Positions 2,381 through 47,575 are shown, counted from the first letter of the whole stretch. The stretch: 56,145 nucleotides of DNA, filler included, from Jimgerdemannia flammicorona (GCA_003990765.1; 2 parts of 2 records of this genome joined end to end with filler, not necessarily neighbours in it), one strand, 5' to 3'. Notes: generated by a model not told the origin, from the sequence alone. Translations and numbers: made by a program.

Positions 2381-4279
2381 ATGGCCTGAGATAAGACCCC
2401 CAGGGTGGTGCAGCTGCAGGTGAAGAGAGTATCTATAGTAATGGTGGTTGAGACAAGGAGAAGGGTTGAGGAGGTGATGGCCGAGTATGGTAATGTAGTT
2501 AATATTGGTTTCTAGATTTGAGAGGAGACTACCATCAGGACTGGGAATATTGATATCAGGATTTGACTAGCAGAAAGAGGCCACTGGGAAGATGAGTGAC
2601 TGACCAGCAGTGATACTTTGGGAGGCTTTCAGCTATCAGGTCTTGAGGGTGAAAGGGAGTGAGGAGGAGGAGGAGGACCTACTGAAGGCTATGAGTGGGG
2701 CTGTTGAGCAGAGAACAAAGGTCTGGAAGGAATTTGTCAAGTCAACACACTTAGAAATTGTAGAGGGGAAGCATATTTACACTGACAAGAGGTAGTGGGA
2801 GCAGGCCCAGGAGTGCAGGAGGCAGAGGGAGCTTTTGGTAAGTATAAAAGGAGGGGTAGAGAAGAAGGTGGAGGGGACTGAGGAGGTGAGAGGCATCAAA
2901 GCCAGTATCTAGACCAGTAAGAAAGGAGAGGAGGTAGAAGTGAGCAAAGAAGGGGCTGAGAGGATACCAAACAAGGATCATAATACAGATAGTATATTCA
3001 AGGTCTGGGAGCAGGAGTTAGATAGCACTCCCCCCCCTCTCCTTATTAAGAGGGGTCCAGTTGAGAAGAGAGAGGTAGTGGAGAGACTTAGACTTAGTAC
3101 AGAAGGAGCTAAATGTGGATTTGTAGAGAATGGGATTGATATATAACATTATTTCTTATGAACAGTACAACCAATATTTTCTCTTTGAATATGAATGAGT
3201 TAAGGGGGTCTGGGTGATGTAAGAACATTTTTACTTAGCTCAAGAGATTGGAGGCTGATCTTTTTTTACTACAGGATGTATGGTGTGAGGATGAGGATAA
3301 TCAGGTAGAGTGGACTAGGGAATGGGATAGGGCTACTGCTTAGTATAGCAAGGTGGCAATTCTGGTGCAAAAGGGCAGAGGAGACCTGGGGGGAATCAGG
3401 AGCTGGGATGATAGATTGGTCTGAAGAGATTGGTATTGACCTGGGTAGGAGTCAGTAAGAGTTGGCTCCTGCTACTGCCCTGCAGTTAGGGGTGAGAGAA
3501 TTGCATAGATTAAGGAGCTGCTGGAGGGGAGAGTATTCTTGGAGGAAGGAGTTAATGTTCTGGGTGGTGACTTCAATATGGTTTGAAATATGTGCCTGGA
3601 TAGAACTGATGATAGAAGGAATACTGGTGGGAGAAGTGGTGGCCTGGATGCATGGGAGGAGGTAGAGCATCTCAGCTCCTTAGGAAATATGGACAGAATA
3701 TGGTGGAACAACACCAGGGTCTACATATATTGGGTGAATGGATTAGATATGAGGATTGACTAGATACTGACAGCTGAATGTTGGGGTGCTAATGTTTGGA
3801 AGACTTTGGAGGTGGAGTGGTGTCTATGGTTGGATCACTGGAGACTGTTGGAGCAGGAGCAGTTTGGGGGAGTGGAGATGGACCTGGATATTGGTGCCTT
3901 AACTCCTCTCTGCTGGCTGAGAAGGGGTTATAGGACTCATAGATGGAGGACATATAGGCAAAGGTTTATATCTGGAGGCATGAGGATTTATCTGTCAGTG
4001 TTAGGTAGATGAGATTGAAGGAGGCTACAAGGGTTTATTGGAGAGAAGCTGATAGGGAGGCTGGGCAACAGAGGAGGAGATATGTATGGTGTGCTTCAAA
4101 TAGGCTGATGAGACTGCAGATGGAATGAGCTGATCTGCTTTCTTCCATTGAGGTGGAAGATTGGAGGTTAGAGAGGGCAAAATTAGAGATAGTAGATCTA
4201 CAATAAGTGTTGAGAGAGGAGGAAGCAATTCATATATAAGGAATGACTGCCAGATTATAGTGGCAAGAGCTTGAGAAGA
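2381..4279 (+). mobile_element. LINE B, left part: ORF1 remnant and ORF2 start with AP endonuclease, interrupted by Gypsy A2
   Basis: ORF2 start at ~3158 reads MNSTTNIFSLNMNELRG, followed by GGDFN-like and RID motifs. The frame WQELEK resumes as REWPTRYLSRLL at 25554, matching WQGLEEGERPTRFLSQML in the other LINE copy. Confidence 0.85.
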
Positions 4280-4997
4280 TATAAGAGGGTTGCTTTTTAG
4301 AGTAACTATTACATAGTTCTGGAAGGGTTTTCTGGAAGTTCTGGATATTCTGGAAGACCGTTTTCTTAATATCAAGATCAATTTTGTATAGAGTACATCC
4401 TCTATGCTTATTGATTTCAAGATCAAGTTGACATCTCAACCAAAGTCCTTTTTCAGACTAGTTCTGGATGTTCAGAATTTTCTGTATTTCAGGAAGTTCA
4501 AGAAACTAAGACCAGCTTAGTTGAATTAGTGTATTACTATAGACAATACCCAATCAGGAAATTTTATGATAGGGTTAGGAGTGGGACCTAACAGAGAGCA
4601 GATTTACTTAAGAGTAGTTTGTGGGTTATTAAATAGATTTATTTGCTATTCATGATATTGCTATACTAGAAGTAGTGGTGTAAAGGGATATTGTGGGAAA
4701 GTATTCAGGAGTGTTCTTGGATGTCTGAATCTTTAAGTCTGAGATTCTGAGGTCTGATGGAGGGGGTATTTATACTAGTAAGGAGCTATCTAGACTATGC
4801 TAAATATGGGTATAGCACTTAGTGCCTTGTTGAGTCAGAATGCAGTCACATAGTACAAGGGTGATCTGATATATCAAGAGATTGTCTGACTGCTGAGTCA
4901 GTTTACAGTCACTTTATACAAGGCTAATCTAACTATACTATGACTGCTAAGTTATTTATAGATTTAGATGCTATCTGGGTAGTCTTCGATGACATTA

Positions 4998-7055
4998 TGT
5001 AAGAGGGTTGCTTTTTAGGGTAACCATTACGTAGTTCTGGAAGGTTTTCTGGAAGTTCTGGATATTCTGGAAGACTGTTTTCTTATGATCAAGATCAATT
5101 TCGTATGGAGTATATCCTCTACACTTATTGATTTCAAGATCGGGTTAATGTCTCAACCAAAGTCCCTTTTCAGACTAATTCTGGATATTCAGAATTTTCT
5201 GTATTTCAGGAAGTTCAAAAAACTAAGACCAGCTTAGTTGAATTGGCATATCGCTGCAGACAATACCCAATTAGGAAATTTCGTGATGGGGTTAGGAGTG
5301 GGATCTAACAGGGAGCAGATTTACTTAAGAGTGGTTTGTGGGTTATTAAATAGGTTTATTTGCTATTCATGATATTGCTATACTAGGAGTAGTTGTATAA
5401 AGGGATATTGTGGGGAAGTATTCAGGAATGTTCTTGTGTGTTTGAGTCTGAGATTCTGAGGTCTGGGGGAGGGGGTATTTATACTAGTGAGGGGCTATCT
5501 GGACTATACTGAATATGGATGTAGCACTAAGTACTTTGCTGAGTTGAAATGCAGTCATGTAGTACAAGTGTGATCTGATATGTCAAGAAATCGTCTGACT
5601 GCTGAGTTAGTTCAAAGTCACGTTGTACAAGGCTAATCTAACTATACTATGACTGCTAGGCTATTTATGGGTTTAGGCGCTGTCTGGGTAGTCCTCGATG
5701 ACATCACCATTGATTGTATCATCTCTGATGAAGTAGTTGTCTAGGAATAATGGTTCGCGGATTACTTCTCCTTGTTCGCTGAGGTAATAATACATTGGAA
5801 CTTCATCTCTGTCCCACAGGATAGCATCATCTGTCTTGTACACTGGATAAGATGTTGGTGGGTGGAGGAGGGGTACATCATTTTCACTTTCATCAGATTC
5901 ACTGTCTGTATACCTTCTGTAGGTTACAGCACTATGAGTTGCAGGGTTATAGTAAGCTGGTGGCTGTGGTTCATATTGCTCATACTCAGGTGGTGGAGTG
6001 GTTGGTTCGATCTCGAGGGTTGTCTGGAGGTATAGGTTATATTCTCCAGTCTCTTCATTGTAGTTAAAGTAATCGGGGGTGAATGCAGATTAGTATTCAT
6101 GCCAGTGGTCATTGTCCCAATAAGTCTCATATGTTGTTATGAACTATTGTAAGTTCATTGGCAAGGTTGGCGGAGTGATCAGGGTTGGCAGAGATTCTTG
6201 GCTAAAGGTTATGTTGGCATCAGAGGGATCATTGTCTTCTGCTTCATCTTCATCAAAGTGGATTATATCGTAGATGTCCTTCATGGCATATCCAACTTGG
6301 GGCATTTGTAGGATATGATCATTGGGGTGTGGGAAGGTTCTATCTGTGGTTTCGATGTACTTGAGGTACTTCTGGTTGAGTTCTTGTATCATATTGTCAA
6401 TTTGGCCATAGGACAGAGTAGCAACCATTTCGCTGATAGTAACTCGGAGGCGGGGAATAATGGTACTGTACTCATAGAAGATTTCTCGATGTTTGCGGGC
6501 AATGAGCTTCTGGTGTTGAGACATCTGGGTAATATCTGTATCGTAGTGGTGTTCAACCATGTCTTCCAGGAGGCAGCCAATCTGGTAGTAGCTTGAGATT
6601 TGTCTGATTCGGTGAGCCTCGCTAAGCATGTTCAGAGCATTCCATTGGGCTTCCACGAAGTAGAGGAGTGCCAGGCTATGGATATTCATGAGGGGCAGAG
6701 GGGGTGTGGCTTCGTTGACAATGGCATTCCAAATGTCAGTGCAGATATGGTTGTAGATCTCAGTGGTCATATTTGTGTGTTTGGGAGTTATGGTTGTTGT
6801 TTGTTTTGGTTCTGATTTGATGCGTCTCAGTACTTGGTATATATGCATTTGATCCTGATTGGTAAGATTCCATTTGTGTAATCTTGTGTTCTGTGACTTC
6901 ATATTGACTCAGCTTTGTATGCTGTGACTTTGGTTTGACTCAGCTTCATAATCAAGCAGGTGATTTCCAAATTTGTTTGAAGGTCATGTGTGATTTCAGT
7001 GGCTTATTCAGAGGGTGATATGTAATTTCGGTGGCTTAGAGGTTATGCACTTACA
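4998..7055 (-). repeat. A1 3' LTR (2058 bp)
   Basis: Direct repeat of 13576-15570 with TG...CA ends. Minus-strand TATAAATA at 5476-5483 and AATAAA near 5355-5360. Confidence 0.95.
5673..6770 (-). pseudogene. LTR(U3)-encoded ORF of family A, 365-aa consensus, unknown function
   Basis: ORF 6144..6902 continues in frame past a CAG>TAG stop to DYPDSA* at 5673. The sister LTR reads through that codon (ORF 14188..14820). The same 1098-nt length is seen in the solo LTR. Confidence 0.85.
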
Positions 7056-7068
7056 ACTCTCCCCTTCT
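7056..7068 (-). other. Polypurine tract of A1
   Basis: AGAAGGGGAGAGT immediately before the 3' LTR on the minus strand; identical in A2. Confidence 0.9.
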
Positions 7069-7481
7069 TAGCTTTTGACGTCCTCGTCGGGGCCTTCTAA
7101 TTTGTTCTAGTGTTGTTACATCATTTGGGAGGTCAAAAGTCTGGTAAGGTCCATTTTCTCAGAAAGTGGCATGCTTGTAGTATAGTTGCCTAATGCATTG
7201 GATTCACACGTTAAAGGGTCATATGTTCAATGCCATGCGCTGGAAGTGATTCTGATATCATTCACTGCTGGAGAATTTCCTCTAAGACATCTTCTTAAAT
7301 GTCTATGCCTTGTTTCCCACCAGTGGTATAGGGAGTATAGGCTTGCTTTCAGTTTTGCTATTTTTCTAGGGGTCCAGTATTCTTGTCTTGTTTTGCTGAA
7401 TTCTTAGTTTGGTTCACAATAATTATAATGTTTGGGAGGATAATATATAGTATGTGTCAGTAGGTGCAGAGTATTTTGGTT

Positions 7482-10400
7482 TTAGTTGTTCAAGGAATCA
7501 TATTCCTGAACTAGGTCAGTAGCATTCTGGAGATTGGTCTTGGGTTCCCAGGTTGCATCATGGATTGGGTAACCTTTCCATTTGACAAGGTACTCAGGGT
7601 GGTTCTTGTTGCCATGTTTGTTGAGGATCTGCTCAACTTCATACTCCTCTTGGTCATTAATAATGACAGGTGCAGGTGGTTTGGTGGTCCAGTTGGGGAA
7701 TAGTTTGTCATCATTGTCATTATATCACTTGAGACATTGAACATTAAAGACTGGGTGAATCTTAATAGTGTCTGGTAGTGCCAGTTTGTAGGAGGTTGGA
7801 GAGACTTGGGCAATGACTTCAAATGGTCCAATGAACTTGCTGTTCAGCTTTGTAGATGGTCTGTGCTTGAGGTTGTCAACTCGGTATCCTCTGATGTCTA
7901 GTAGGACTTTTTCTCCAATATCAAAAGTTTCTTCATGGCAGTGTTGGTTAACATACTGTGATTGTTGTTCTTGAGCTCGCGATAAATTCTCAATGGCAAT
8001 CTGGCTTAAATTGCACATTCAGAGTAAGAATTCTTCAACAGCTTCGACTGTGGAGGGTTCTTCAGTGGTTCGGATAAGTGTCAAAGGGGTGTTTGGATTT
8101 TGTCCAGTATTGGCAAAGAATGGGGTCATTCCAAGAGAGGCTTGTTTGCTATTGTTGTAGGCAAACTCAACTGCAGTGAGGTGTTCATGCCAGTCATCTT
8201 GTCTGTAGGAAACATAGTTCCTTAGTATTTGTTCCAGAGTTCAGTTCATTCTTTCAGTTTGGCCATCAGATTCTGGGTGAAAGACTGTGAATAGTGCAAG
8301 TTTTGTTCCAAGGTGTGCATGGGGGGCTTTTCAAAAGTGGCTGGTGAATTTCGGATCTCAGTCACTAACAATGATCTTAGGAAGACCATGATAGCAGAAG
8401 ATATTATCAAATAAGAGGGTGGCTATGTCTGGTACTGTTGCAGTAGTGGTAGTAGACACAAAGTGGGCTTGTTTGCTGAGATAGTCTACAAATATAACAA
8501 TTGCATCTTTCCCATTCTTGGTTTGGGGTAGTTGTACAATGAAGTCTATAGAGATTTGTTCCTAATTTGCAGATGGTACTGGGATAGGGTGGAGTAAGCC
8601 GGGTTTTGCTAGTGTTGAGAACTTGTTTCATTGGCAGGCATTACAGGAAGTGATGTAGGTTTTGAGCTGATCTGCCATACAGGGCCAATAGAAGTTTCGG
8701 GAGATAACTTCATAACATTTATCAAATCCTAAATGTCCAGCTGTAGGGGCATCATGACATTTGAATAGGATAGTCCTTCGGAGGTCTCGGTTGTTTGGAA
8801 CATATAGTCTGTCCTTGTAGTAGATAGCATTGTCCTTGAGTTGGTATTGGTTATACCAGATATGCTTGTCAGCATCATCACGTTCAGGATTTCTCGGAGT
8901 GCCTGAGCTTCTTTATCATCAACACATGCTGCAATGATTTGTTCCATGAAAGTGTTGGTAACCAAGGTCAGAGTTTGGATAACCTCTTTGATTGGTGGTC
9001 TGGAGATTGCATCGGCAACAATATTTTCCTTACCAGGGCGATACTGGATTTCATAGTCAAAGTTGGTGAGGACTTTCATCCATCTGGCTTGCTTTTGGGA
9101 AAGGGTAGCCTGTGTCTTGATGTTGACTAATGACTTGTGGTCAGTCAATACAGTGAAGTGTGCTCCTTCTAGATATGGTCACCATTTGATCAAAGTGTCT
9201 ATGATGGCTAGCATTTCCTTCTCGTGAGTTGCGTAGTTGATTTTGGCATCATTGAACTTGCAGGAGTGATAGGCCACAGGGTGTCCTTCTTGCATGAGCA
9301 CTGCTCCAAGAGCTAGGTCAGAGGCATTAGTAGTGACTTCATATGGTAGGGCAGGATTTGCTGCTTGAAGTACTGGAGTGGTTATCAAGGCATCCTTCAG
9401 TGCTTGAAAGGTGGTATCTTGCTTGTATCCCCAATTTACAAGATTGTTGAAGTCTTTCTCTTATTTCATAGTCCAGGATTGTTCTTGTTTCTTACTGTGT
9501 TTGGTCATTTGGGTGAGGGCAGTAGTGATATTAGCAAAGTTGGCAACAAATCGCCTGTAATAGTTTGCTAATCTCAGGAATGACTGGAGGTCTTTCAGCT
9601 TCTTAGGTCTGGGCCAATCCTTGATTGCAGAGGTTTTGCTGGGGTCCACTTTGATTCCATTTGGAGTGACAATGTGTCCAAGGAATTGAATTTCTTTCAA
9701 GAGAATTTTGCACTTGCTGAGTTTTGCAAAGAGTCGGTTTTCTCGGAGTTTCAGTAGTACTAGTTCAAGGTGTTCGAGATGTTCCTCCAGGGTTTTGCTG
9801 AAGACTAGGATGTCGTCAATATAGACAACAATGAATTTGTCTAGGTATGGATGCAGAATGGTATTCATCAGTATCTGGAAGGTTGCTGGAGTATTAGTTA
9901 AGCCAAAGGGCATAACCAGGAACTCGAAGTGTCCATAGCAAGTTCGGAAAGCTGTCTTGTAGATGTCTTCTTCTTTCATGGCAATTTGCCAGTAACCATT
10001 TCATAGGTCAAAAGAGCTCATGAATTGTGGGTTGGTGAGCCTATCGAATATTTCATCAATCCTCAGTAGTGGGCAACAGTTCTTGATGGTCTGTTCATTG
10101 AGATCGTAGTAGTCAATACACATTCATAGGTCTTCTCCTTTCTTAACAACGAAGAGGACTAGTGCACTATAGGGTGATATGCTGGGTCTGATGAATCCTT
10201 GTTCTAGGAGTTCATCAATTTCTTTCTTGAGTGCATCGATTTCTCTCAAAGACATGTGATAGATTGACTTGAAGGCTGGTTTGGCATCTGGGATAGTCTT
10301 GATTGCATGGTCTACTGCTCATTTGGGAGGTAGGCCTTTCGGGAGCTTCTTTGGGAATATGTCTCAGAATTTCTAGAGTAGTGGTCTGACATGGCTGTCA

Positions 10401-12613
10401 ACTTTGGAAAAATCTTCTTCAGAGTTCTTGGGTTCTCCTTTGGATGGTCGGATGGAGATGGTAAAGAGAGGGCATTTCTTGGCCAATTTCTTGAGTTGTA
10501 GTTTGTTGATGTGGGTGATCTTTGGTCCAGGGTCACTAGAGTTGAGTGAGTCCTTTTCGCCTTGTAGTTTGAAGTTGTGGCATCCTTTCTTGATGGTCAG
10601 AGAATAGTTTACCAAATCGATCATGGGGTTCTCTTGTTTCAACCATAGAGTTCCAAGGATGATTTCATTGTCAGGGAGTGGTATGATCTGGAGGGTAACA
10701 TATACTCGATAGTCACCAATTCGGAAGGGTAGGTTGCAGACAGCTTTGCTAATAATATGTGAGGTTCCATCAGCTATAGCAACTGCTTGAGTTTGCTGTA
10801 CTGGAGAGGTAAAGACCTTGAGTCTGTTGGCTGTCTCTTCATTGATGAAGTTGCCTGAGGCGCCACTGTCTATCATAATCTTGACAGGTGCTCTGTTGAC
10901 AAAAGCCTTAAGGGTGAGCAGTTTGTCTGATCCGATGGTGGTGATTTTAGTTGTAGGAGCCTTTCTTCTGTTGGTTCTTCTTTGAGCCAGTTCATTGACA
11001 CAAGAGAAGCAATCGTCAATCATTCGGGAAGAGTACATTCCAATACTATCAGGGCATCGGCCACTTGATACATATCCATCTTCGATCTTCTTGTAGAATT
11101 GTTCTTCTTTGCTCATGGTAGGTTGGGCTGGGGCTTTGTTTGATGAGCCAAATTCTTTGAATCCTCAGATGGTGGGCAGTAGTTCAGGGACTTCTTTGAC
11201 TGTCAGGGTTGACTCAATTTTTTCAAATAGGATCTGGGCAATGCAGAAACCAATAGAGATCTTGAAGGGTATCCAACTGTGGTTTCGGATGAGGACAATA
11301 ATTTCGCCTGTATAATCCTCGTCAATGACTCCTCCTTCTACTGAGAGTCCTTTCAATGCTAGGCTGCTGCGACAGCATATTCTTCCAACATGTCCTTCAG
11401 GGATTTGGAAACTGATTCCTGTGTAGACTTGTTTGACTTCTCGGTTAGAAACTGTAGCTTCTTCAGCTGCATACAGGTCATATCCAGCTGCTTTTTGACT
11501 TCCTTTGGTTGGGGCCTTAGCAGTTTGTCTTAACTTGACAAAGTCTAGTGTTCTGGTGGTCAGGTTGTTGAGGTGGTGAAGAGTGGTAACAGTTGCTCAT
11601 ATTGCTGTTCAGGGTTTTCGGTTGGGGCAGGTACTGGCCATGTATCCTGTCTTTCGGCAATAGAAGCATGCTCCACTTCTTCGAAGTTCATTCCTTTCGC
11701 CTTCAGTAAGTTTCTTGAAGGTACTTGGCTGGGTGGATTCATGATTTCTGGGTGTCCAAGAGGTGGATGTGGAGGGAGCTTGGGGTGCTACATGCCTAGG
11801 TTCTTCTTTCTTGGTCCAAGTCCTTTTCTTGTTGTTGAATTGTCTTCAAGGCAGAATTAGTCCAACTGTTAGGATTTGCTTGACCATAGTCTTGATTCTT
11901 GCCAGGCACCATTGTTGGTGATCACAACCAACTGGGCGGCCTTGTTCTTGGATTTTTCTAGTAAGCCATTCAGGCAGGGCATCGAATAAATGGTCTGCTC
12001 TTGTACCATTTCGTGCTTCATCATTGGCAATATATCCTAGGCCAACAGTGTTCAGGAGTGACTTGAGTTTTGTACAGAAGGTTTCGAATTCTTCTTTGCC
12101 ATATATGTCAAATTTGAGGTTGCGGAGTTTTACTTGAGATTCAGCAATCATGGTTTCACTGCAGTATTGAGCAATCATGAGTTGTTTGAGTCCAGGGGCT
12201 GCAGGATAGGCTCCATATCCTGGGGTATTGTTTGCTGCATTCTGGGCAACTAGTGCAGGTCGGGTATCCCATGTGAGGGGTTTTTCAGGAAGAGTTCACC
12301 ACCATTCTTCGGCAGGTCCTTGGAAGAATATAACAACTCAGTGGACATAGGCTGTAGTGGTAGCAAAGAGTTGTTCCAGAGTGTGCTCTTGATTGTTTGT
12401 CAGAATGCGGTCAGCAACTCGCTCATTAGTCCATTGATTGGCTTCGAAGTTGGTGTCAACTATACTAATGAAGCTTTGGACTTCTTGTACAGTACCAATA
12501 AAGGTAGGTAGGCTCAGATTTTTGGTAGGTCGGGTCTGTTCAGCTAGGGCAGTAATGGTTTCTGCCATTATAGCTACTTGGGCTGTGAGGTCTAGAATCT
12601 GTTGGTTCACTAT
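7482..12613 (-). pseudogene. gag-pol: A1 gag-pol: Gag, CCHC knuckle, dUTPase, Cys module, protease, RT, RNase H, integrase, chromodomain
   Basis: Motifs CFYCRKTG(Y/H)MASTC; GYDL, RSSLA, GGVIDEDYTGEI; MIDSGASGNF; KTAF, MPFGLTN, YIDDIL; TNASDLALGAVL, ADAISR; GPF(EV); EYEVEQIL...[17 protein letters not shown]. Many TGA/TAA/TAG stops from C>T changes. Confidence 0.95.
11145..11550 (-). pseudogene. dut: Trimeric dUTPase domain of A1, between nucleocapsid and protease
   Basis: AAGYDLYA, RSSLA, GGVIDEDYTGEI, IAQI and (R)GFKEFGSS correspond to the five dUTPase motifs; in frame with the zinc knuckle. Confidence 0.9.
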
Positions 12614-13557
12614 GTTGTTTACTGGAGGCAGTTGGACTGCTGATAGTGGTGTTACTGGTACTACTTGAGGTACTGGTGCTGAGTGTGATGGGGTTCTTTG
12701 GGTCTGTGTAAGTTGCTGGAGTAGTAGTTGTGGGTCTGGAGTGAGGGCTTGATAGATAGCTGTTTGTTGCTGTGTAGGTATATTCTGTCCTGATGGAAGT
12801 GCGTCTCCTTCAGTAGTGTATCTGGGATCAAATTTACTGAGATACTCCTCCTCTTCTTCGGTTTGGTCCCTGTATAATTGGGTTTGTTCAGCGTCAAAGT
12901 AGACAGAATCAGTTATATATTTGATTTCAGATGGACTTAATTCAAAGTCAAGTTCAGATTCAGTATTGGTTTCAGATTCAGGTAGGGCTGTAGCAGGGCC
13001 TGCTTCAGGTTCGGGGTCAGATAGTTGATGAAGAGTTTCTCTTGCTTCTTCTTTAAGGATATGGCGGGCCTTGCTGTTCTGGAATCGGTAGTATAAGGTG
13101 GTCTTGGTCCTGGTGCATTGAAAGTCAGTAGAGTTGAGCCACTTGGCTACAGAGGCTTGGGCTTCATGAGGAACTAAGGCTAGAAAGACTACTGCTGATT
13201 GTCCTAGGTCACTCAGATTTGTGGAGCTGACAAAACTCTTGTTGAGAAGAGTAAAGAAGGCTTCAATAAGACCTTCTTCATCTTGACTTGCTGGGTGTAG
13301 TGCAAGGAGTTCGATGAATAGAGTTTTGCCTATTTGTTGGTTTAACTGGAGTACTTCTTTCTTTGAATGAAGTTTGTCTCACTTGTTGTAGGTGTGGAGG
13401 TCAAATTGTCCTTGTACGTTAGGTTCAATTCTCTCCAGATTGTCAGATGGTTCAGGATAAATTCCAGTTCAGAGGTTGGGCTTTATACCAACTTGTAGGA
13501 ATTCTCAGAGTGGTTTGTAGTGGGGTGAGGAAGCATCTTGAAGTGGAATTGGATTGT

Positions 13558-13575
13558 AAACCACTGCTACTAAGT
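13558..13575 (-). other. Primer-binding site of A1 (probably initiator tRNA-Met)
   Basis: ACTT(A/G)GTAGCAGTGG follows the 5' LTR. TGGTAGC (intact in A2) is complementary to the GCUACCA end typical of eukaryotic tRNA-iMet. Confidence 0.75.
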
Positions 13576-15570
13576 TGTAAGAGGGTTGCTTTTTAGAGTA
13601 ACCATTACGTAGTTCTGGAAGGTTTTCTGGAAGTTCTGGATATTCTGGAAGACCATTTTCTTATGGTCAAGATCAATTTCGTATAGAGTATATCCTCTAC
13701 GCTTATTGATTTCAAGATCAGGTTGACGTCTCAACCAAAGTCCCTTTTCAGACTAATTCTGGATGTTCAGGATTTTCCATATTTCAGGAAGTTCAAGAAA
13801 CTAAGACCAGCTTAGTTGAATTGGCGTATCACTGCAGACAATACCCAATTAGGAAATTTCGTGATGGGGTTAGGAGTGGGACCTAACAGGGAGCAGATTT
13901 ACTTAAGAGTGATTTGTGGGTTATTAAATAGGTTTATTTGCTATTCATGATATTGCTATACTAGGAGTAGTTGTATGAAGGGATATTGTGGGGAAGTATT
14001 CAGGAATGTTCTTATGTATTTGAGTCTGAGATTCTGAGGTCTGGGGGAGGGGGTATTTATACTAGTGAGGGGCTATCTGGACTATGCTGAATATGGATGT
14101 AGTACTAAGTGCTTTGCTGAGTCAGAATACAGTCACATCATACAAGGCTAATCTAACTATACTATGACTGCTAAGCTATTTATGAGTTTAGGCGCTGTCT
14201 GGGTAGTCCTTGATGACATCACCATCAATTGCATCATTTCTGATAAAGTAGTTATCTAGAAATAATGGTTCGTGGATTACTTCTCCTTGTTTGCTGAGGT
14301 AATAATACATTGGAACTTCGTCTCCGTCCCACAGGATAGTATCGTCTGTCTCATACACTGGATAAGATATTGGTGGGTGGAGGAGGAGTGCATCATTTTC
14401 ACTTTTATCAGATTCACTGTCTGCATACCTTCTGTAGGTTACAGCACTACGAGTCACAGGGTTATAGTAAGCTGGTGGCTGTGGTTCATGTTGCTCGTAC
14501 TCAGGTGGTGGGGTGGTTGATTCGATCTCGAGGGTTGTCTGGAGGTATAGGTTGTGTTCTCCGGTCTCTTCATTGTAGTTGAAGTAATCGGGGGTGAATG
14601 CAGATTGGTATTCGTGCCAGTGGTCATTGTCCCAATAAGTCTCGTATGTTGTTATGAACTGTTGTAAGTTCATTGGCAAGGTTGGTGGAGTGATCAGAGT
14701 TGGCAGAGATCCTTGGCTAGAGGTTATGTCGGCATCAGAGGGATCATTGTCTTCTGCTTTGTCTTCATCGAAGTGGATTATATCGTAGATGTCCTTCATG
14801 GCGTATCCAACTTGGGGCATTTGTAGGATATGATCATTGGAGTGTGGGAAGGTTCTATCTGTGGTTTTGATGCACTCGAGGTACTTCTGGTTGAGTTCTT
14901 ATATCATATCGTCAATTTGGCTGTAGGACAGAGTAGCAACCATTTTGCTGGTAGTAACTTGGAGGTGGGGAATAATGGTACTGTACTCATAGAAGAGTTC
15001 TCGATGTTTGCGGGCGATGAGCTTCTGGTGTTGAGACATCTGGGTAATGTCTATATTGTGGTGGTGTTTGACCATGTCTTCCAGGAGGCAGCCGATCTGG
15101 TAGTAGCTTGAGATTTGTCCGATTTGGTGAGTCTCGCTAAGCATGTTCAGAGCATTCCATCGGGCTTCCATGAAGTAGAGGGGTGCCAGGCTATGGATAT
15201 TCATGAGGGGCAGAGGGGGTGTGGCTCGGTTGACAATAGCATTCCAAATGTCAGCACGGATACAGTTGTAGATCTCAGTGGTTATATTTGTGTATTTGGG
15301 AGTTGTGGTTATTGTTTGTTTTGGTTCTGATTTGACACATCTCGGTACTTGGTATATATGTATTTGATCCTGATTGGTAAGATTCCATTTGTGTAATCTT
15401 GTGTTCTGTGACTTCATATTGACTCAGCTTTGTATACTGTGACTTCAGTTTGACTCAGCTTCGTGATCAAGCAGGTGATTTCCAGATTTGTTCAGAGGTC
15501 GCGTGTGATTTCAGTGGCTTGTTCAGAGGGTGACATGTAATTTCAGTAGCTTGGAGGTTGTGCGCTTACA
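13576..15570 (-). repeat. A1 5' LTR (1995 bp; 63-bp deletion relative to the 3' LTR), with LTR-ORF copy at 14188-15285
   Basis: Aligns with 4998-7055. ORFs 14899..15417 and 14188..14820 are one frame broken by CAA>TAA. TATA box at 14054-14061 (minus). Confidence 0.95.
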
Positions 15571-17353
15571 CATCACCATCGATGACATCATCTCTGATAA
15601 AGTAGTTGTCTAGGAAGAGGGGTTCGTGGATTACTTCTCTTTATTTACTGAAGTAATAATATATTGGAACTTCATCACCATCCTACAGGATAGCATCATC
15701 TATCTCATATACTGGATAAGGTATTGGTAGGCAGAGGAGAGGTGTATCATCTTCACTTTCATCAGATTCACTGTCTGTATACCTTCTATAGATTATAGCC
15801 CTATGAGTCATAGGGTTGTAGTAAGCTAGCAGCTATGGTTTGTCTTACTCATACTCAGGTGGTGGAGTGGTTAATTTGATCTCAAGGGTTGTCTGGAGGT
15901 ACAGGTTGTGTTCTCCAGTCTCTTCATTATAGTTAAAGTAATTGGAGGTAAATGTAGGTTGGTATTCATACCAGTGGTCATTGTCTCAATAGATCTCATA
16001 GGTGGTTATAAACTGTTATAAGTTCATTAGCAATGTTGGCAGAGTGATCAGGGTTGGCAGAGATTCTTGGCTAGATGTCATGTTGGCATCAGTGAGATCA
16101 TTGTCTTCTGCTTCATCTTCATCAAACTGGATTATATTATAGATATTCTTCATAGCATATCCAACTTGAGGCATTTGCAAGATATAGTTGTCAGAGTGTG
16201 GGAAGGTTCTGTCTGTGATCTCAACATACTCGAGGTACTTGTGGTTGAGTTCTTATATCATGTCTTCGATTTGACCATAGGATAGGGTAGCAGCCATTTT
16301 GGCAGTAGTAACTTGGAGATGGGAAATAAAGGTGCTATACTTGTAGAAGAGTTCTCGGTGTTTGCAGGCAATGAGTTTCTGGTGTTGAGACATCTGGGTA
16401 ATGTCCATATCATGGTGATGTTCAACCATGTCTTCCAGGAGGTAGCTGATCTGGTAGTAGCTTGAGATTTGTCTGATTTGGTGGGTCTCGCTAAGTATAT
16501 TCAGGGCATTCCATTGGGCTTTCACAAAGTAGAGGGGTGCTAGACTATGGATATTCATGAGGGATAGAAGGGGTGTGGCTTGATTGACAATGGCATTTCA
16601 AATGTCAGCACAGATGTGGTTGTAGATCTCAGTGGTTATGGTTGTGTATGTTCAGAAGTTGTAGTTGTTGTTTGTTTTGGTTCTCTGTTCGATGTGTCTC
16701 GGTACTCAGTATATATACATTTGGTCCTGATTGATAAGATTCTGTTTATGTAATTCTTGTATTCCATGACTTCATATTGACTCAGCTTTGTGTACTATGA
16801 CTTCAGTTTAACTCAGCTTTGTGACTGAGCAGGTGATTTCCAGATTTGTTCAGAGGTTGCATATGATTTCGGTGGCTTGTTCAGAGAGTGATATGTAATT
16901 TCAGTGGCTTGGAGGTTGTGCGCTTACAACTCTCCCCTTCTTAGTTTTCAACATCCTCATTGGGACCTTCTAATTTATTCTAGCATTATTACACTATTTG
17001 GAAGGTCAAAAGTCCAGTGAAGTCCATTTTTCTCAGAAAGTGGTATGCTCATAGTACAGTTGCCTAACATATTAGATTCACATGTTAAAGGGTCATGTGT
17101 TTAATGCCATATACCAGAAGTGATTCTGATGTCATTTACTGCTGGAGAATTTCCTCTAAGGAATCTTCTTAAATGTCTATGCCTTATTTCCCACCAGTAG
17201 TATAGGGAGAATAGGCTTGCTTTCCATTTTGTTATTTTTCCAAAGGGTCAGTATTCTCTTAACTTACTGAGTTTTTGATTTTTTGCTCATGATAATTATA
17301 ATGTTCAGGAGGATAATATATAGTGTATACTGATAGGTGTTGGATATTTGGTT

Positions 17354-23521: not shown

Positions 23522-25548
23522 TGTAAGAGGGTTGCTTTTTAGAGTAACCATTATGTAGTTCTGGAAGGGTTTTCTGGAAGTTCTGAATATTCTGAAAGAC
23601 TGTTTTCTTAAGGTTAAGATCAATTTTGTATGGAGTATGTCCTCTATGCTTATTGATTTCAAGATCGGGTTGACATCTCAACCAAAGTCCTTTTTCGGAC
23701 TAGTTCTGGATGTTCAGGATTTTCTGTATTTCAGGAAGTTCAAAAAACTAAGACCAGCTTAGTTAAATTGGCATATCACTGTACACAATACCCAATTAGG
23801 AAATTTCATAATGGGGTTAGGAGTGGGATCTAATGGGGAGCAGATTCACTTAAGAGTGGTTTGTATGTTATTAAATAGGTTTATTTGCTATTCATGATAT
23901 TACTATACTAGGAGTAGTGGTGTGAAGAGAGTCTGAGATTCTGAGGTCTGGGGGAGGGGGTATTTATACTAGTAAGGGGCTATCTAGACTATGCTAAATA
24001 TGGGTGTAGCACTTAGTGCCTTGCCGAGTCAGAATATAGTCATGTAGTATAAGGGTGATCTGATATATCAAGAGATCATCTGACTACTGAGTCAGTTCAC
24101 AGTCATATCGTACAAGGCTAATCTAACTATACTATGACTACTAAGTTATTTATAGGTTTAGATACTATCTGGGTAGTCTTCAATGATATCACTATCAATA
24201 ATATCATCTCTGATAAAGTAGTCATCTAGGAAGAGGGATTCATGGATTACTTCTCTTTGTTCACTGAAGTAATAATACATTGGAACTTCATCACCATCCC
24301 ACAGGATAGCATCATCTGTCTCATATTCTGGATAAGGTGTTGGTGGGTGGAGGAGAGGTGCATTGTCTTCGCTTTCATCAGATTCACTATCTGTATACCT
24401 TCTATAGGTTACAGCACTATGAGTCGCAGGGTTGTAGTAAGCTGGCAGCTGTAGTTCATCTTGCTCATACTCAGGTGGTGGAGTGGTTGATTCGATCTCA
24501 ATGGTTGTCTGGAGGTACAGGTTGTGTTCTCTGGTCTCTTCATTGTAGTTGAATTAATCGGAGATACATAAATGCAGATTGATATTCATGCCAGTGGTCA
24601 TTGTCCCAATAGGTCTCATAGGTGGTTATGAACTGTTGTAAGTTCATTGGCAATATTGATAGAGTGATCAGGGTTGACAGAGATTCTTGGCTAGATGTCA
24701 TGTCGGCATCAGAGGGATTATTGTCTTCTGCTTTGTCTTCATCAAATCAGATTATATCATAGACATCCTTCATAGCATATCTGACTTGAGGCATTTGTAA
24801 GATATAGTCATCAGGGTGTGTGAAGGTTCTGTCTGTGGTCTTGACATACTTGAGGTACTTGTGGTTGAATTCTTGTGTTATGTCTTCGATTTGACTATAA
24901 GATAGGGTAGCAACCATTTTGGCAGTAGTAACTCGGAGACAGAGAATAAAGGTGCTATACTTGTAGAAGAGTTCTCGGTATTTGTGGGCAATGAGTTGCT
25001 GGTGTTGAGACATCTGGGTAATGTCCATGTCATAGTGGTGTTTGACCATATCTTCCAGGAGGCAGCTGATCTAGTAGTAGCTTGAGATTTGTCCAATTCA
25101 GTGGGCCTCACTAAGTATGTTCAGGGCATTCCATCAGGCTTCCCCAAAGTAGAGGGGTGCTAGACTATGGATATTCATGAGGGGTAGAGGGGGTGTGGCT
25201 CGATTGACAATGGCATTCCAAATGTCAGCATAGATGCAGTTGTAGATCTCAGTGGTCATGGTTGTGTATGTTCAGAAGTTATAGTTATTGTTTGTTTTGG
25301 TTCTCTGTTTAATGTGTCTCAGTGCTCAGTATATATGTATTTGGTCCTGATTGGTAAGATTCCATTTGTATAATTCTTGTATTCTGTAACTTTGTATTGA
25401 CTCAGCTTTATGTACTGTGACTTCGGTTTGACTCAGCTTCATGACTGAGTAAGTGATTTCCAGATTTGTTCAGAGCTCATGTGTGATTTCAGTGGCTTGT
25501 TCAGAGGGTGACATATGATTTCAGTGGCTTGAAGATTGTGTGCTTACA
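23522..25548 (-). repeat. A2 5' LTR (2027 bp) with decayed LTR-ORF
   Basis: TGTAAG...CTTACA ends. ORF 24747..25049 matches the LTR-ORF core. Confidence 0.95.
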
Positions 25549-28197: not shown

Positions 28198-31100
28198 AGA
28201 GCTCTAAGGAAAGGGTATACAGGATGGGTGATAAAGAATCTCTCTATAGTATCCCACAATCCAGAGGAAAGATTACACCTCTGTGACCATTGACTACCAA
28301 TGCTGCCTGACTGTCCTCCAGAAGACTTATAAGCAACCTCCTGAACTCTGGGGAAACACCCACCTGCTTCAGCACCCCCTCTAGCCAGACCCTCCTCACT
28401 CTGCCATATACCTTCTCCTAATCTAGAAACACCAATTGGCCATCAACCCTGGTAGCCCGAGCCCCTTCAATCACTCCATGGACCTAGGCCATCCCATCTC
28501 GAATCAACTGACTACTAACAAATCCTCTTTACTCGACTCCCAGTATCTGCTGAGTGATCCCCTATAGCCTAGTCACCAAGACCTTTATCACCAGCTTGCA
28601 GTCCATATCAAGGAGTATGATCAGATGCCAGTTCTTCCAATCTTCTCTTTTTCTCTTATCTTTATAGAGCAAGGAGACCAGCCCTAGATGCTGGCCCCCA
28701 ATCCAAGTTCCTGACTGAAGAACCTCATCACACATCCCCGTCAACTCCTCCAGTACTACCTCCACTCTGGCCATCTTCTTCCAAAAATCCCAGAGAAGCT
28801 GTAAGAGGGTTACTTTTTAGGGTAACTGTTACATAGTTCTAGAAGGGTTTTCTGGAAGTTCTGGATATTCTGGAAGACCATTTTCTTATGGTCAAGATCA
28901 ATTTCATATGGAGTATGTCCTCTATGCTTATTGATTTCAAGATTGGGTTGACATCTCTACCAAAGTCCTTTTTCGGACTAGTTCTGAATGTTCAGGATTT
29001 TCTGTATTTCAGGAAGTTCAAGAAACTAAGACCAGCTTAGTTGAATTGGCGTATTGCTGCAGACAATATCCAATTAGGAAATTTCGTGAGAGGGTTAGGA
29101 GTGGGACCTAACAGGGGGCGGATTTACTTAAGAGTGATTTGTGGGTTATGGAATAGGTTTATTTGCTATTCATAATATTGCTATATTAGGAGTGTTTGTA
29201 TAAAGGGGTATGAGGGGGAAGTATTTAGGAATGTTCTTGTGTGTTCGAGTCTAAGATTCTGAGGTCTGGGAAAGGGGGTATTTATACTAGTGAGGGGCTA
29301 TTTGGACTATGCTAGATATGGATATAGCACTAAGTGCTTTGCTGAGTCGGAATGCAGTCATATAGTACAAGTGTGATCTGACATGTCAAGAGATTGTCTG
29401 ACTGCTGAGTCAGTTCACAGTCATATTGTACAAGGCTAATCTAACTATACTATGACTGCTAGGCTATTTATGGGTTTAGGCACTGTCTGGGTAGTCCTCA
29501 ATGACATCACCATCGATTGCATCATCTCTGATGAAGTAGTCATCTATGAATAATGGTTCGCGGATTACTTCTCCTTGTTTGCTGAGGTAATAATACATTG
29601 GAACTTCGTCTCCATCCCCCAGGATAGCATCATCTATCTCGTAGGCTGGATAAGGTGTTGGTGGGTGAAGGATGGGTGTATTGTCTTCACTTTCGTCAGA
29701 TTCATTGTCTGTGTACCTTCTATAGGTTACAGCACTATGAGTTGCAGAATTGTAGTAAGCTGGTGGCTGTGGTTCATGTCGCTCGTACTCAGGTGGTGGA
29801 GTGGTTGGTTCAATCTCGAGGGTTGTCTGGAGGTACAGGTTGTGTTCTCCGGTCTCTTCATTATAGTTGAAGTAGTCAGGGGTGAATGTGGGTTGGTATT
29901 CATGCCAGTGGTCATTGTCCCAATAAGTCTTGTATGTAGTTATGAACTATTGTAAGTTTATTGGCAAGGTTGGCAGAGTGATCAGGATTGGCAGAGATCC
30001 TTGACTAGAGGTCATGTCGGCATCAGAGGGATCATTGTCTTCTACTTCATCTTCATCGAAGTGGATTATGTCATAGATGTCCTTCATGGTGTATCTAACT
30101 TGGGGCATTTGCAGGATGTGATCATTGGGGTGTGGAAAGGTTCTGTCTGTAGTTTCGACGTACTTGAGGTACTTGTGGTTGAGTTCTTGTATCATGTCAT
30201 CGATTTGACCATAGGACAGGGTAGCAACCATTTTGCTAGTAGTGACTTGGAGGTAGGGAATAAAGGTGCTGTACTCGTAGAAAAGTTCTCAATGTTTGCG
30301 GATAATTAGCTTCTGGTGTTGAGACATCTGGATAATGTCTGTATCATGGTAGTGTTTGGCCATATCTTCCAGGAGGCAGCCAATCTGGTAGTAGCTTGAG
30401 ATTTGTCCAATTCGGTGGGCCTTGCTAAGCATATTCAGAGCATTCCATCAGGCTTCCACAAAGTAGAGAGGTGCTAGGCTATGGATATTCATGAGGGGCA
30501 GAGGGGGTGTGGCTCGGTTGACAATAGTATTCCAAATGTCAGTATGGATATGGTTGTAGATCTCAATGGTCATATTTGTGTATTTGGAAGTTGTGGTTGT
30601 TGTTTGTTTTGGTTCTCTGATTCAACACATCTCGGTACTCGGTATATATGCATTTGGTCCTGATTGGTAAGATTCCGTTTGTGTAATTCTTGTGTTCTGT
30701 GACTTCGTATTGACTTAGCTTTGTATACTGTGACTTCTGTTTGACTCAGCTTTGTGATCAAGCAGGTGATTTCCTAGTTTGTTCAGAGGTCGCATGTGAT
30801 TTCAGTGGCTTGTTCAGAGGGTGACATGTAATTTCAGTGGCTTGGAGGTTGTGCACTTACAGAAGCCCATCTTCCCCTGGAGTTATCCCCTTGCTCATTA
30901 AAGCCAGGACCTTGCAGACTTCCTCCCCTCTCACTGAGTCCCCCAGAGCCCCTAGGCCCATTGCTGGGTTTGGATGCCAACCCTCCAACTGCCATTCAAT
31001 GTTCAAGACAACTTCACTCCCATCTTCCTCACTCCATAGGTCCTTACAGTGGGATCTTAGCAATTCCAGAATTACTGGAGTCCCCACCACCATCTCCCCC

Positions 31101-34100: not shown

Positions 34101-34156
34101 AACATTATAAAAAGTGTTGTTGAAGCCTTGTGCTACCTGAATTTTACTAGTGAAAG
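28196..34156 (-). mobile_element. LINE with intact 5' end (ORF1 ~34089-32150; ORF2 from 32128, truncated in RT), interrupted by a solo LTR
   Basis: ORF2 start MNSTTKIFSLNINEL. ORF 30857..31111 ends PGEDGL and resumes LWDFWKKMARVE after the LTR. WKNWHLIILLDMDCKL is an RT domain-1 motif. Confidence 0.9.
28800..30861 (-). mobile_element. Family A solo LTR (2062 bp) containing the LTR-ORF at 29476-30573
   Basis: Perfect 5-bp TSD GAAGC (28795-28799, 30862-30866), TG...CA ends, and no adjacent PBS or PPT. Confidence 0.97.
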
Positions 34157-35010
34157 GTGTGCTCCTTGATGGCCTCCATAATCAGCCTCCTTGCCATCTC
34201 TTTTGATACTATAGAGACATCTAGCACAGTCAACTATACCACTTGGGGATCTCAGTATAAATACTAGGCCATGGAGACTATCATCTCCCCCACTACCACT
34301 CTCTTCTCAATTACTTTCAGCAGTATCTCCTCTTTCTCAAAGCCTACCTCCACCCCTTCCTAACTCTTTAAAAACTTCACCAAGGCTGCTCTTTTTACCT
34401 CTTAAGCCAGTAGCCCCAGAGTCATCCTTATAATTACTACTAAGCTCTAGAAGTATAATGTAATAGTAAATTCTGATCTTAATTTCTTGAGTAACAGTGC
34501 CACCACCAGATCTATTATACCATCTGCTAGATCTCCAGGTCTTATATTCACCCTCTGTCCAGTTCTACTATCAGCTATCATATCTGGATTTTTTTCCAAA
34601 TTAGCAGTCTCCTTGCCATCAGCAGTCTCACTCTCTCTAGTCACTACTCTCCCAGCTCTACTGCCCTCACTACTATAGGCTGCTCCCCCATACCCTATAG
34701 CTCTTACCATCTCCTTGTCCTTCCTCAGCCAGCCCTTCAGTCCAGTCATCAGCTGACCCTCATTCTCCCTGGCTCTGATCATCCAGTGCTGCCTCCTCTC
34801 CTTTTATATCCTCTGGCCAGCAAGTCTCTTATACTTTCCCCCAAGCCATGACTCCTTCCCATATACTGTCAGTCAAAAGTACTAGGGCTACCCTGCTCAG
34901 TACACATCTCAGAATACTTAATAGTTGTCATATCACTAATATCTTTTTTTCAAAAATGATGTCTTGAATATTGCTAGAAGTTTGTATAATCCAAATATTA
35001 CTAGAGAAAG
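34157..35010 (-). mobile_element. Older LINE 5' fragment (5' UTR and ORF1 start)
   Basis: ORF 34447..34782 has NPDMIAD...RPGDLADG...LLKKLRSEF, homologous to ORF1. The 5' end CTTTCTCTAGTAA lies at 35010. Confidence 0.8.
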
Positions 35011-35179
35011 GTAGAATATAATAAGTCATACTTGGTGAAACTTGATAGAACATTATAGAGAGTCACTAATCATCAATTAGTAATTGATAGAATCTTGGTA
35101 GAACTATTTAGAAAACAGATTCTTAGTAAATGGCTAAGTAATTCTATACTATTCTAAGCTATTCTGAAATATTCTACTA

Positions 35180-40376: not shown

Positions 40377-41874
40377 TGTAACAGTGACCCCAGAATGATA
40401 ACATCAGCACAGGAGACAGTCTTTCTTTATAAGCCACCAGATCGGAGTACAAGAAGATCATATGGCATATAAGATGAGCAATGATGACCAACTGTGAGTC
40501 ATTGTGACCACAGCACAAGCATCCTGAAGAATATAAAAGAAGGATTAAGGAACCACAGTAGCAGCAACCAACAAGAACCACCAATCTCAAAAATAGCTCA
40601 AAGACTTACCACAAACAAAATGCCTGCTGCCCGCCAAACCTCAAGGTCAAGGAATCATCAAGGTATCTTGGTCGAGGAAAGAATGTTCCAAGACATCAGA
40701 AGAGCCATGAGGACCTACTCAAGAAGGACTCCTAGTGTTAACCTGGGTACTGCAGACCTCTATCACTTCATTCTCTACTGTCGTGAAATGGAAACAAGGA
40801 TCACCATTGCTACCAAATGCCTCCAAATGTGGCAGGAGTACGAAATAGGAAACCTCCTCTGCTGGGAGTTCCCACAGGTAAGCCCTCAAGAGCTACAAGA
40901 TGCCACTCCCATGGACCTATGTGAGGCAAGGACAGTAAAGAAGATCCATCAGATCTTCAGGCATGCACTATGGTCGATCCCCAACTTGGAGTATGTTAGA
41001 GTCTTAGACTTCAGAGATCTGTCATCCTACCATATCAATGTACTAGAAGCCAGGGTAGCTACAGAAGCCCAGTCTACCATCACCCTCAACAGCAAAGAAG
41101 TAGAAGACTTCTGGCACCCTATCTTTCAGGACAACCCAGACCAATTCCTGCAAGAATTGATCTCAGTATTCCAAGGCCCAAGCATCCAGGTTAGATCTCC
41201 CCAAGACCCCACATTTGTCCCCTATTTTGTGGAAGAGAACCTCATAGACTAGAGAGCTCCAGATCTTGTCCCCACCGAACGTGATAATGTCATTGGCGAT
41301 GATGTCATCCCGCACGACATATCTGAAGCATGCAAAGAACACGAAATGCATGACAATAAAGTACGTGAGACATGCAGCCTGCATGATGAATTCGTAGACC
41401 TCATCTTCTTCAGTGATGATGATGATGAAGCTCCTATGGTCCTGAACTTTCTGCTCTAAGTTCTTTGTTACACTGGATAATGCCAGCACCAGTATTCTGA
41501 GGTGATGCAAAATTATTCCAGCACTGACATTTTGATGTGATACTGGATAATACCAGCCCTGGAACTTAGTTGTTTTAGTTATTGGAATTTATATTTAGCT
41601 TTATATCTTAGCAACTATTGAATTATATTTTGTATAAATACCTCTCTTATTTCCTCTGAAATAAAGTCAGTCAAGTTCCGGTTTCACTTACACACACTTC
41701 CTTGCAAGCAATCTAAGAGATAACAAGACAGTTAAAGATAATAAGTTTGAGAACTATAAGACCTTGGGAAGGCACTCCAATAAGAACTTGCTTATAACAA
41801 CTTAAGTTAGTCTAAGAGATACACCTTGAAGAGAATCTGGCATATTTGAAGGACTCAGTGACCACTACATAATA
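40377..41874 (+). repeat. C 5' LTR (1498 bp)
   Basis: Direct repeat of 47576-49084. TATAAATA at 41633-41640 and AATAAA at 41660-41665. Confidence 0.93.
40620..41459 (+). pseudogene. LTR(U3)-encoded ORF of family C, ~279 aa, unknown function
   Basis: ATG at 40620. TAG at 41250 is TGG in the 3' LTR, and the frame continues to ...FSDDDDEAPMVLNFLL*. The second copy (47819-48640) has its stop at a different codon. Confidence 0.85.
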
Positions 41875-41992
41875 ACTTGGTGCCCATTGGCTGGTGATTT
41901 AAGACAAATCCCTCACTTTCAAGCTGAAAAACGAACAACCCCACAACAACTACCTTGACTACAAGAGTCACCCTGCAAGAATTAAAGACAAG

Positions 41993-47261: not shown

Positions 47262-47575
47262 CAGCATGTCCCATGACCAGCAGGCTATCTGTCTGGACTA
47301 TTCTCTAAGGAATACAGCACTGGCAACTACTCATCCGTGAAGACTTTCACAGTCAGAGGAGTTTGAACCGTCAACTGATTGGTCAAGATCAGAATCAGAC
47401 CCTTGCTCTATATAAAGGGAGCGACCCTTCACCATCACACCAAAATACAAAGGGAAGATGCCAGCCTATAAACACCAGTTTTTGACCCCTTGCCAGAGGT
47501 TATGGGATCAGCAAATTTTTCAGGACTGGACCAATGAATAAGGATGCTCAGGAAGATCCTTATTCAGGAGGAAGA

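Follow-up and report, generated by a model that had tools for sequence, protein, structure and literature searches.

A three-block 31-bp motif at two putative promoters within the long terminal repeats of a chromodomain Ty3/gypsy retrotransposon

In this study, we describe a family of LTR retrotransposons, here called family A, whose long terminal repeats carry inverted pairs of a 31-bp unit made up of three conserved blocks, GCTGAGTCA-N6-AGTCAC-N4-TACAAG, on the two sides of an open reading frame that lies within the LTR itself. The family was found in a stretch of 56,145 nucleotides, filler included, from the genome of Jimgerdemannia flammicorona (GCA_003990765.1), and this whole stretch is referred to below as the window. 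On balance, we consider that the 31-bp unit probably works in cis as a regulatory module to which a host factor of the bZIP type binds. It seems, judging from the sequence, that two TATA promoters share this one module, one of them serving an orphan gene that is internal to the LTR.

Results

The family-A LTRs are about 2060 bp long and lie on the minus strand, starting with TGTAAG and ending with CTTACA. Their TG..CA ends, together with a polypurine tract that abuts the 3′ LTRs, a primer-binding site that follows the 5′ LTRs, and target duplications of 5 bp, mark them as true LTRs. The internal region contains a dUTPase, an aspartic protease, RT and RNase H, as recognized by Pfam, and also an integrase SH3 domain and a chromodomain (Chromo, E = 8e-18); because of these internal domains, family A is a chromodomain Ty3/gypsy LTR retrotransposon. 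The complete domain set (gag, dUTPase, PR, RT, RNase H, IN, chromodomain) is that of Ty3/gypsy with a chromodomain and not that of a retrovirus (Retroviridae), and no env-like ORF was seen in the element. In the portions of the literature available to us, chromodomain elements with a dUTPase are described from fungi, and the dUTPase-bearing elements of rotifers are without chromodomains. Rfam and tRNA scans of the window returned nothing.

Five family-A LTRs are present in the window, two for each of two full elements, which are nested, and one solo LTR. The outer element extends from 25530 down to 4279, and its 3′ LTR is interrupted by the insertion of the inner element, which extends from 15570 down to 4998. 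The interrupted LTR is broken at the identical LTR position on both sides of the inner element, the junctions show the 5-bp target duplication TGATG/TAATG, and both halves of the split LTR are closest to the other LTR of the outer element, whose own flanks read TCTCC/TCTTC (again a 5-bp target duplication). All LTRs being on the minus strand, the 3′ LTR of the inner element occupies 4998..7055 (TGTAAG...CTTACA, with the polypurine tract just upstream at about 7057-7069) and its 5′ LTR 13576..15570; the outer element has its 5′ LTR at 23522..25530 and its split 3′ LTR at 15571..16925 (5′ part) and 4279..4995 (3′ part). The solo LTR (28800..30861) is bordered by the 5-bp target duplication GCTTC. 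A 717-bp tandem duplication was considered for 4279-4995 and rejected, because this segment is half of the LTR that was split by the nested insertion; the motif copies at 4829 and 4892 likewise sit in this split 3′ LTR and do not represent an extra duplication. Also present is an older family-A fragment at 54195-54692, which includes ORF sequence only, the motif sites falling outside it.

When at most three mismatches are allowed, the motif has 18 matches in the window. In 100 dinucleotide-preserving shuffles of the window the mean was 0.01 matches and the maximum 1, so that 0/100 shuffles reached at least 18. A 19th copy, with four mismatches, lies at 16787-16817 (minus strand). All 19 copies are inside family-A LTRs, and they are not independent of one another, being four ancestral sites (A, B, C and D) sampled in five LTRs. 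The coordinates that a preliminary description of this DNA had given for the motif were all correct. Its statement that each LTR has four motifs is correct for all but one of the five; in the exception, the LTR at 13576-15570, a 63-bp deletion has merged A and B at 14116, which leaves three sites, D (15429-15459), C (15398-15428) and the fused A/B site (14116-14146). In the split LTR of the outer element, the four-mismatch copy is site D and adjoins C (16756-16786) in the 5′ part, and B (4892-4922, plus strand) and A (4829-4859, plus strand) are in the 3′ part; the 5′ LTR of the same element has D at 25407, C at 25376, B at 24086 and A at 24023. The solo LTR has the same layout as the LTR at 4998..7055, as had been described, with sites at 29341 (A), 29404 (B), 30689 (C) and 30720 (D). 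Wherever an LTR retains both sites of a pair, the spacings of 63 bp from A to B and of 31 bp from C to D are exact.

The anatomy of one LTR is best followed in the copy at 4998..7055, read in the orientation of the element. The first ~100 nt of the LTR contain three AAGCCAC-type repeats. Site D (6914..6944, minus strand), the more distal of the two tandem units, starts at 111 nt counted from the 5′ end of the LTR, and site C (6883..6913, minus strand; LTR position 142) abuts it with a 31-bp period and ends 38 nt before a TATATA at 6838-6844 (LTR position 213). Between site C and TATATA stands a CCAAT (6858-6862), and the two elements (6838..6862, minus strand) would form a putative core promoter of the LTR-embedded ORF. 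This ORF of 366 codons (5673..6770, minus strand; LTR positions 290 to 1389) begins with an ATG at 6770, 68 nt after TATATA, and ends with a stop codon at 5673-5675. Site B (5601..5631, plus strand; LTR position 1433) lies 41 nt beyond the stop and is inverted with respect to C and D, as is site A (5538..5568, plus strand; LTR position 1496), which starts 63 bp from the start of B. On the minus strand, the block-1 end of site A is 54 nt before TATAAATA (5476..5483, minus strand; LTR position 1581), and about 120 nt beyond TATAAATA follows AATAAA (5355..5360, minus strand; LTR position 1712), a putative poly(A) signal. TATAAATA, with AATAAA after it, is the likely promoter of the genomic RNA, and the LTR ends at about position 2058. 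TATATA, TATAAATA and AATAAA are kept in 5/5 of the LTR rows that cover them, and CCAAT in 4/5.

The preliminary description held that the three blocks are conserved and that the spacers vary, and this is borne out by the comparison of site types. In the majority strings of all four site types, 18/21 block positions are identical against 1/10 spacer positions (Fisher p = 9.6e-5, a generous value because the blocks were defined post hoc from the very data tested), and the invariant positions form three contiguous runs. Pairwise agreement between site types is 19-20/21 in the blocks and 2-6/10 in the spacers, and no similarity extends beyond the 31-bp units into the 25-nt flanks on either side. 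The support for block conservation comes from these four paralogous sites only; across them, blocks that are conserved and spacers that are free point to a pattern of protein recognition, not to a recent neutral duplication.

Within any one site, dead copies preserve their blocks no better than the LTR does on average: measured against their own majority, the blocks differ at 21/378 positions (5.6%) and the spacers at 20/180 (p = 0.024), and the LTR-wide background divergence from the majority is 5.7-8.1%. Copies decay approximately neutrally after insertion, as expected, and it is between paralogous sites and between element lineages that constraint shows. Between elements, sites D and C diverge by 0.05-0.13, the flanking U3 by 0.06-0.20 and the third codon positions of the ORF by 0.17-0.24.

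The first block had been said to contain the AP-1/Gcn4 core TGAGTCA. This palindromic heptamer is exact in 13/19 sites, and the remaining 6/19, among them 5538 and 5601, have short transition variants of it. Within the unit, AGTCA recurs at an offset of 11 nt and TACAAG follows another 10 nt on, so that the block starts through D and C fall at 0, 11, 21, 31, 42 and 52 nt. These offsets, the 31-nt period of D and C, and the 63-nt distance between A and B place all blocks on one face of the helix.

The LTR-embedded ORF is a real gene under purifying selection. Its dN/dS is 0.19-0.28 between elements, compared with 0.46 and 0.73 between the LTRs of one element. Between elements, third codon positions (0.17-0.24) diverge about twofold more than first and second positions (0.08-0.11), and within the inner element the two classes are equal (0.077 and 0.073, respectively). 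With this selected ORF, family A thus has an accessory protein besides gag-pol. The copy in the LTR at 4998..7055 has two in-frame stops. Word-index and full HMMER searches yielded only two relatives of the protein, P0003 and P0004, both fragmentary and metagenomic; one metagenome relative, with 65% identity, keeps the frame to the same C-terminus as the LTR-ORF, and a second starts at the same methionine. The ORF matched no Pfam family and no transposase or VANC family, and its Atlas scores were at most 0.85, with no sign of a DNA-binding domain. The C-terminal half of the predicted protein is acidic and proline-rich, a composition that would fit an activation-type tail. AlphaFold models of this ORF and of the LTR-ORF of the family described next were unusable, with pLDDT of 39.5 and 36.7, respectively.

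The window also contains a plus-strand element of another family, family B (40377-49077), with a dUTPase and a protease. Its LTRs are 1.5 kb long and have an LTR-ORF of their own, relatives of which were found only in metagenomes. A single, partly similar motif-like unit, TGAGTCA...CACAG...CACAAG (40493-40519, plus strand), lies 119 nt from the start of the family-B LTR; 12 nt after it comes TATAAAAG (40532-40539, plus strand), the TATA box of the family-B LTR-ORF, upstream of an ATG at 40620. The copy in the 3′ LTR (unit plus TATAAAAG, 47692-47738, plus strand) is identical to 40493..40539. Downstream of the family-B ORF there is no inverted heptamer. The ORF is followed there by different 35-bp repeats, in two copies in one LTR and three in the other, and after these come GTATAAATACC, an 11-mer common to the LTRs of families A and B, and then by AATAAA. 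The similarity between the ORFs of the two families is not significant (E = 0.33; hhalign probability 0.45%). The shared layout indicates that a two-promoter plan, with the heptamer at the ORF promoter, is common to both families. The second promoter of family B is preceded by different repeats and the motif is therefore not a universal feature of that promoter; of the two families, only A has its unit again at the second promoter.

Family A is abundant in contigs of soil metagenomes. In contigs of four public runs, among the 40 of 505 differences listed, the letters by which the window departs from the heptamer at 5545-5547 are in most contigs exchanged for those that complete it. The window was matched by 20 sequencing runs, every share being at most 0.23 and none of the runs being listed as RNA. 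For two runs that were guessed to be RNA and represented by contigs only (X7 and X8), depth is highest at 5136-5411, which in minus-strand direction lies just past TATAAATA, and drops 25- to 70-fold in the next bin; contigs show neither start nor strand, and the peak is at most a weak hint of transcription. A search of viral contigs with the degenerate motif gave 0 matches. We also used a 19-nt anchor beside the motif, chosen so that matches were not selected by the motif itself; its single match in metagenome contigs was rejected as an unrelated locus, where a TATA region precedes a gene that is unrelated too.

Discussion

Repeated factor-binding units in U3 are a textbook feature, and Tnt1 BII of tobacco has short tandem U3 units that are stress-responsive activator sites. 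We propose that the 31-bp unit of family A would serve the LTR as a composite enhancer or upstream activating sequence, recognized in double-stranded DNA by host factors with sequence specificity. The likeliest such factor would be a bZIP dimer of the AP-1/Gcn4 kind seated on the block-1 heptamer, and further contacts may be made along one face of the helix, at the AGTCA half-site 11 bp on and at TACAAG another 10 bp on. The D,C pair would drive the mRNA of the LTR-embedded ORF. The B,A pair is reversed, a change that enhancers tolerate, and would drive transcription of the genomic RNA, predicted to start after TATAAATA, with the AATAAA ~120 nt on as the terminal signal. The module would be used twice because the LTR also carries a small gene of its own. 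The bZIP assignment covers the block-1 heptamer, and blocks 2 and 3 are matched to no known factor; which bZIP applies depends on the host. The layout of the repeat, its identity as an LTR, the pattern of conservation and the selection on the ORF are seen in the sequence; promoter function, the points at which transcription starts and the nature of the factor are inferred.

It had been suggested beforehand that the units are binding sites, possibly for the product of the LTR-ORF. Binding sites are indeed the best-supported class, in view of blocks that are kept, that stand about one helical turn apart and that occur in pairs 38-54 nt before a TATA; the analysis gave no support for the LTR-ORF product as the partner in a VANC-like role. 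That the LTR-ORF protein itself recognizes the units, whether it binds directly or acts as a co-factor on a host bZIP, we regard as unlikely. Under such an arrangement the ORF would autoregulate its own and the genomic promoter, or shield both from silencing, and this would be compatible with a host factor. The motif pairs do flank the ORF, with one pair at the ORF promoter; the ORF is a selected gene by its dN/dS of 0.19-0.28 between elements; a metagenome relative, 65% identical, stays in frame up to the same C-terminal end; its acidic, proline-rich C-terminal half would suit an activator; and there are precedents in VANC, in HTLV Tax with CREB and in foamy-virus Tas, as far as the accessible parts of those accounts go. 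However, the protein gives no sign of a DNA-binding domain (no Pfam match; Atlas at most 0.85), and the genomic promoter of family B is without the motif. Moreover, the ORF of family B is not significantly similar, yet its promoter keeps the heptamer, which makes a conserved host site a simpler explanation than partners that co-evolve. In its fullest form the same idea would make family A a "complex" fungal retrotransposon, in which the LTR gene would code for a transactivator or an anti-silencing factor. By itself or seated on a host bZIP, this factor would use the three-block units to act on the ORF promoter and the genomic promoter alike. We hold this whole reading to be distinctly unlikely. 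If it were true, even solo LTRs would be self-contained genes, since each LTR has a promoter, an ORF and a poly(A) signal, and they would supply the ORF factor in trans to the whole family.

The inverted arrangement of the pairs invites three other explanations. One is convergent transcription, in which D and C would drive the sense mRNA of the ORF and A and B, acting on the plus strand, would drive an antisense RNA across it, the two forming a self-limiting pair. A TATTTAT at 5663-5669 (plus strand) stands ~30 nt after the end of B at 5631, mirroring the 38-nt distance from C to TATATA, and each pair would be oriented alike towards its own TATA. This plus-strand string, however, is the complement of (C/T)ATAAATA and is variable among copies, whereas the minus-strand TATAAATA is perfect, invariant and shared with family B, and we judge convergent transcription improbable. 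Another explanation is that the inverted pairs act in RNA or cDNA, D,C pairing with B,A in the U3 of the genomic RNA in a long-range stem that brackets the ORF. We think this highly improbable. The predicted duplex energies, which lie between -35 and -39 kcal/mol when shuffles give -17 to -19 (z from -4.5 to -5.1 in 3/3 LTRs tried of the five), would arise automatically from any inverted repeat; with the spacers unpaired the helices are just 9, 6 and 6 bp; the stem would be lopsided, as D and C abut and B and A are 32 nt apart; the blocks never vary, which leaves no covariation to count; and family B is without a downstream inverted copy. There is equally little likelihood in the proposal, put forward in the preliminary description as relic subterminal repeats of a captured cassette, that the ORF entered the LTR on a DNA-transposon-like cassette and that the pairs are what is left of its subterminal or terminal inverted repeats. 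The motifs are inverted on the two sides of the ORF, but the inverted similarity stops at the 31-bp units when 25-nt flanks are compared, the ORF belongs to no transposase family, and in family B an ORF at the same place has a motif-like site on one side only, upstream. Conserved blocks with free spacers speak of ongoing selection and not of a relic.

Several known systems share part of this layout with family A, to the extent that the available portions of their descriptions allow a comparison. As in the U3 enhancer or UAS repeats to which host factors bind (Gcn4 on yeast Ty1/Ty2, the AP-1 motif of the HERV-K LTR, the tandem enhancer repeats of murine retroviruses), the family-A motif lies inside a true LTR, in repeated copies with a conserved core and free spacers, and it likewise consists of short U3 units upstream of a TATA with a host bZIP core. 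According to the same partial sources, yeast Ty1 counts Gcn4 among its regulators, reference titles link Gcn4 with Ty1 and Ty2, and an AP-1 motif in the HERV-K LTR mediates activation. Family A differs from these repeats in having one unit, in opposite orientations, at two putative promoters per LTR, and one of these promoters would serve an LTR-internal gene. HTLV Tax is described, in the excerpts at hand, as acting via three imperfect 21-bp repeats together with CREB, so that in HTLV-1 an accessory protein encoded by the element works through a host bZIP; family A likewise has several imperfect multi-part copies in U3 with a bZIP-type core. In contrast to HTLV-1, family A is a chromodomain Ty3/gypsy element and not a deltaretrovirus, and its accessory ORF is inside the LTR. 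The foamy-virus Tas protein is, by the part of the account available, required at the LTR promoter as well as at the internal one, and foamy viruses resemble family A in that accessory gene(s) and genome have separate promoters, two in all, on which a single regulator could act; both putative promoters of family A, however, are within the LTR. VANC proteins are stated in the accessible text to bind noncoding regions of their own transposons, and the Arabidopsis VANDAL/VANC system is like family A in combining an element-encoded protein that is not a transposase with short motifs in noncoding parts. VANDALs are Mutator-type DNA transposons whereas family A is an LTR retrotransposon; in addition, the LTR-ORF is without VANC similarity (no Pfam match), and the core of the motif is a generic host bZIP site beside TATA boxes.

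The motif alone is an ordinary feature of a new element, and its setting is less ordinary. The gene that is embedded in the LTR and maintained by selection is more unusual than the motif that accompanies it. If the ORF product were the partner of the motif, an autoregulatory circuit of the kind found in complex retroviruses and VANDAL transposons would exist within an LTR retrotransposon. If, as we prefer, the unit is a host-factor module, and if that module answers a stress-type bZIP, the activity of an abundant retrotransposon family of soil organisms would be tied to a defined signal. Block 1 in its nine-base form appears, in the portions of the literature that we could consult, mostly in papers on ARE/Nrf2/BACH1 and AP-1, and these nine bases also read as an ARE/Maf-type element of animals.

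The LTR-ORF of family A and the nested elements that carry it

The open reading frame contained wholly within the approximately 2060-bp LTRs of family A, a chromodomain Ty3/gypsy retrotransposon on the minus strand, is an orphan gene of 366 codons (5673-6770, minus strand), and the same ORF is found in the other four LTRs. A CCAAT motif, a TATA motif and the ATG lie on its upstream side and AATAAA on its downstream side. Because the LTR holds all of these signals together with the ORF, even the solo family A LTR would constitute a complete predicted gene unit. In-frame stops are present in all five copies in the window (one to eight per copy), and comparison between elements gives a dN/dS of about 0.2. 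An older, separate copy survives as a fragment at 54195-54692 (66% identical).

The two complete family A elements form a nested pair (4279-25530), in which the inner element (4998-15570) lies in the 3' LTR of the outer one, having inserted into that LTR's ORF where the C-terminus is encoded. The target duplication at the inner element is TGATG/TAATG, and the outer element is flanked by TCTCC/TCTTC. One family A LTR has a 63-bp deletion (14116-14146) that extends precisely from site A as far as site B, the inverted pair of 31-bp three-block motifs that lies past the LTR-ORF stop, and it looks like the product of recombination or slippage between both motif copies. Within the first 100 nt of the LTR there are three copies of an AAGCCAC(C/T)GAAAT(C/T)ACA-like repeat (6961-7043, minus strand), and family B has a AAGCCACCAGATC string at a comparable place.

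When the LTR at 4998-7055 was compared with thousands of related contigs from public sequencing runs (X1, X3, X7 and X8), nearly all differences were transitions; the counts in X1 were A>G 87, G>A 95, C>T 43 and T>C 56, with every transversion type at 5 or fewer. This excess fits methylated-CpG decay in a very abundant family.

Family B and other repeats

Family B, the second LTR retrotransposon family (40377-49077, plus strand), carries its own LTR-ORF, which looks unrelated to that of family A; its ATG is at 40620, and beyond a stop at 41250 the frame runs on to about 41459. The domain orders are opposite, as the dUTPase (11165-11596) precedes the protease (10373-11164) on the minus strand in family A, whereas in family B the protease (within 42695-44176) precedes the dUTPase (from 44177). 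Family B LTRs also contain a 35-bp repeat with the core ACTGGATAATGCCAGC, located before TATAAATA (48649-48714 and 41466-41560), in three copies in the 3' LTR and two in the 5' LTR.

A further repeat occurs at 1-1226 and 32921-34147, the two copies being 77.6% identical to each other. The composition of its strands is extremely uneven (GC skew -0.40 and -0.53), and its proline-rich open frames have no Pfam family. The stretch at 35000-40300 is AT-rich (27-28% G+C) and far older than either family A or family B; the gypsy-like frames in it are decayed and include one for an RNase H/integrase-linker-like peptide (36604-36849, minus strand).
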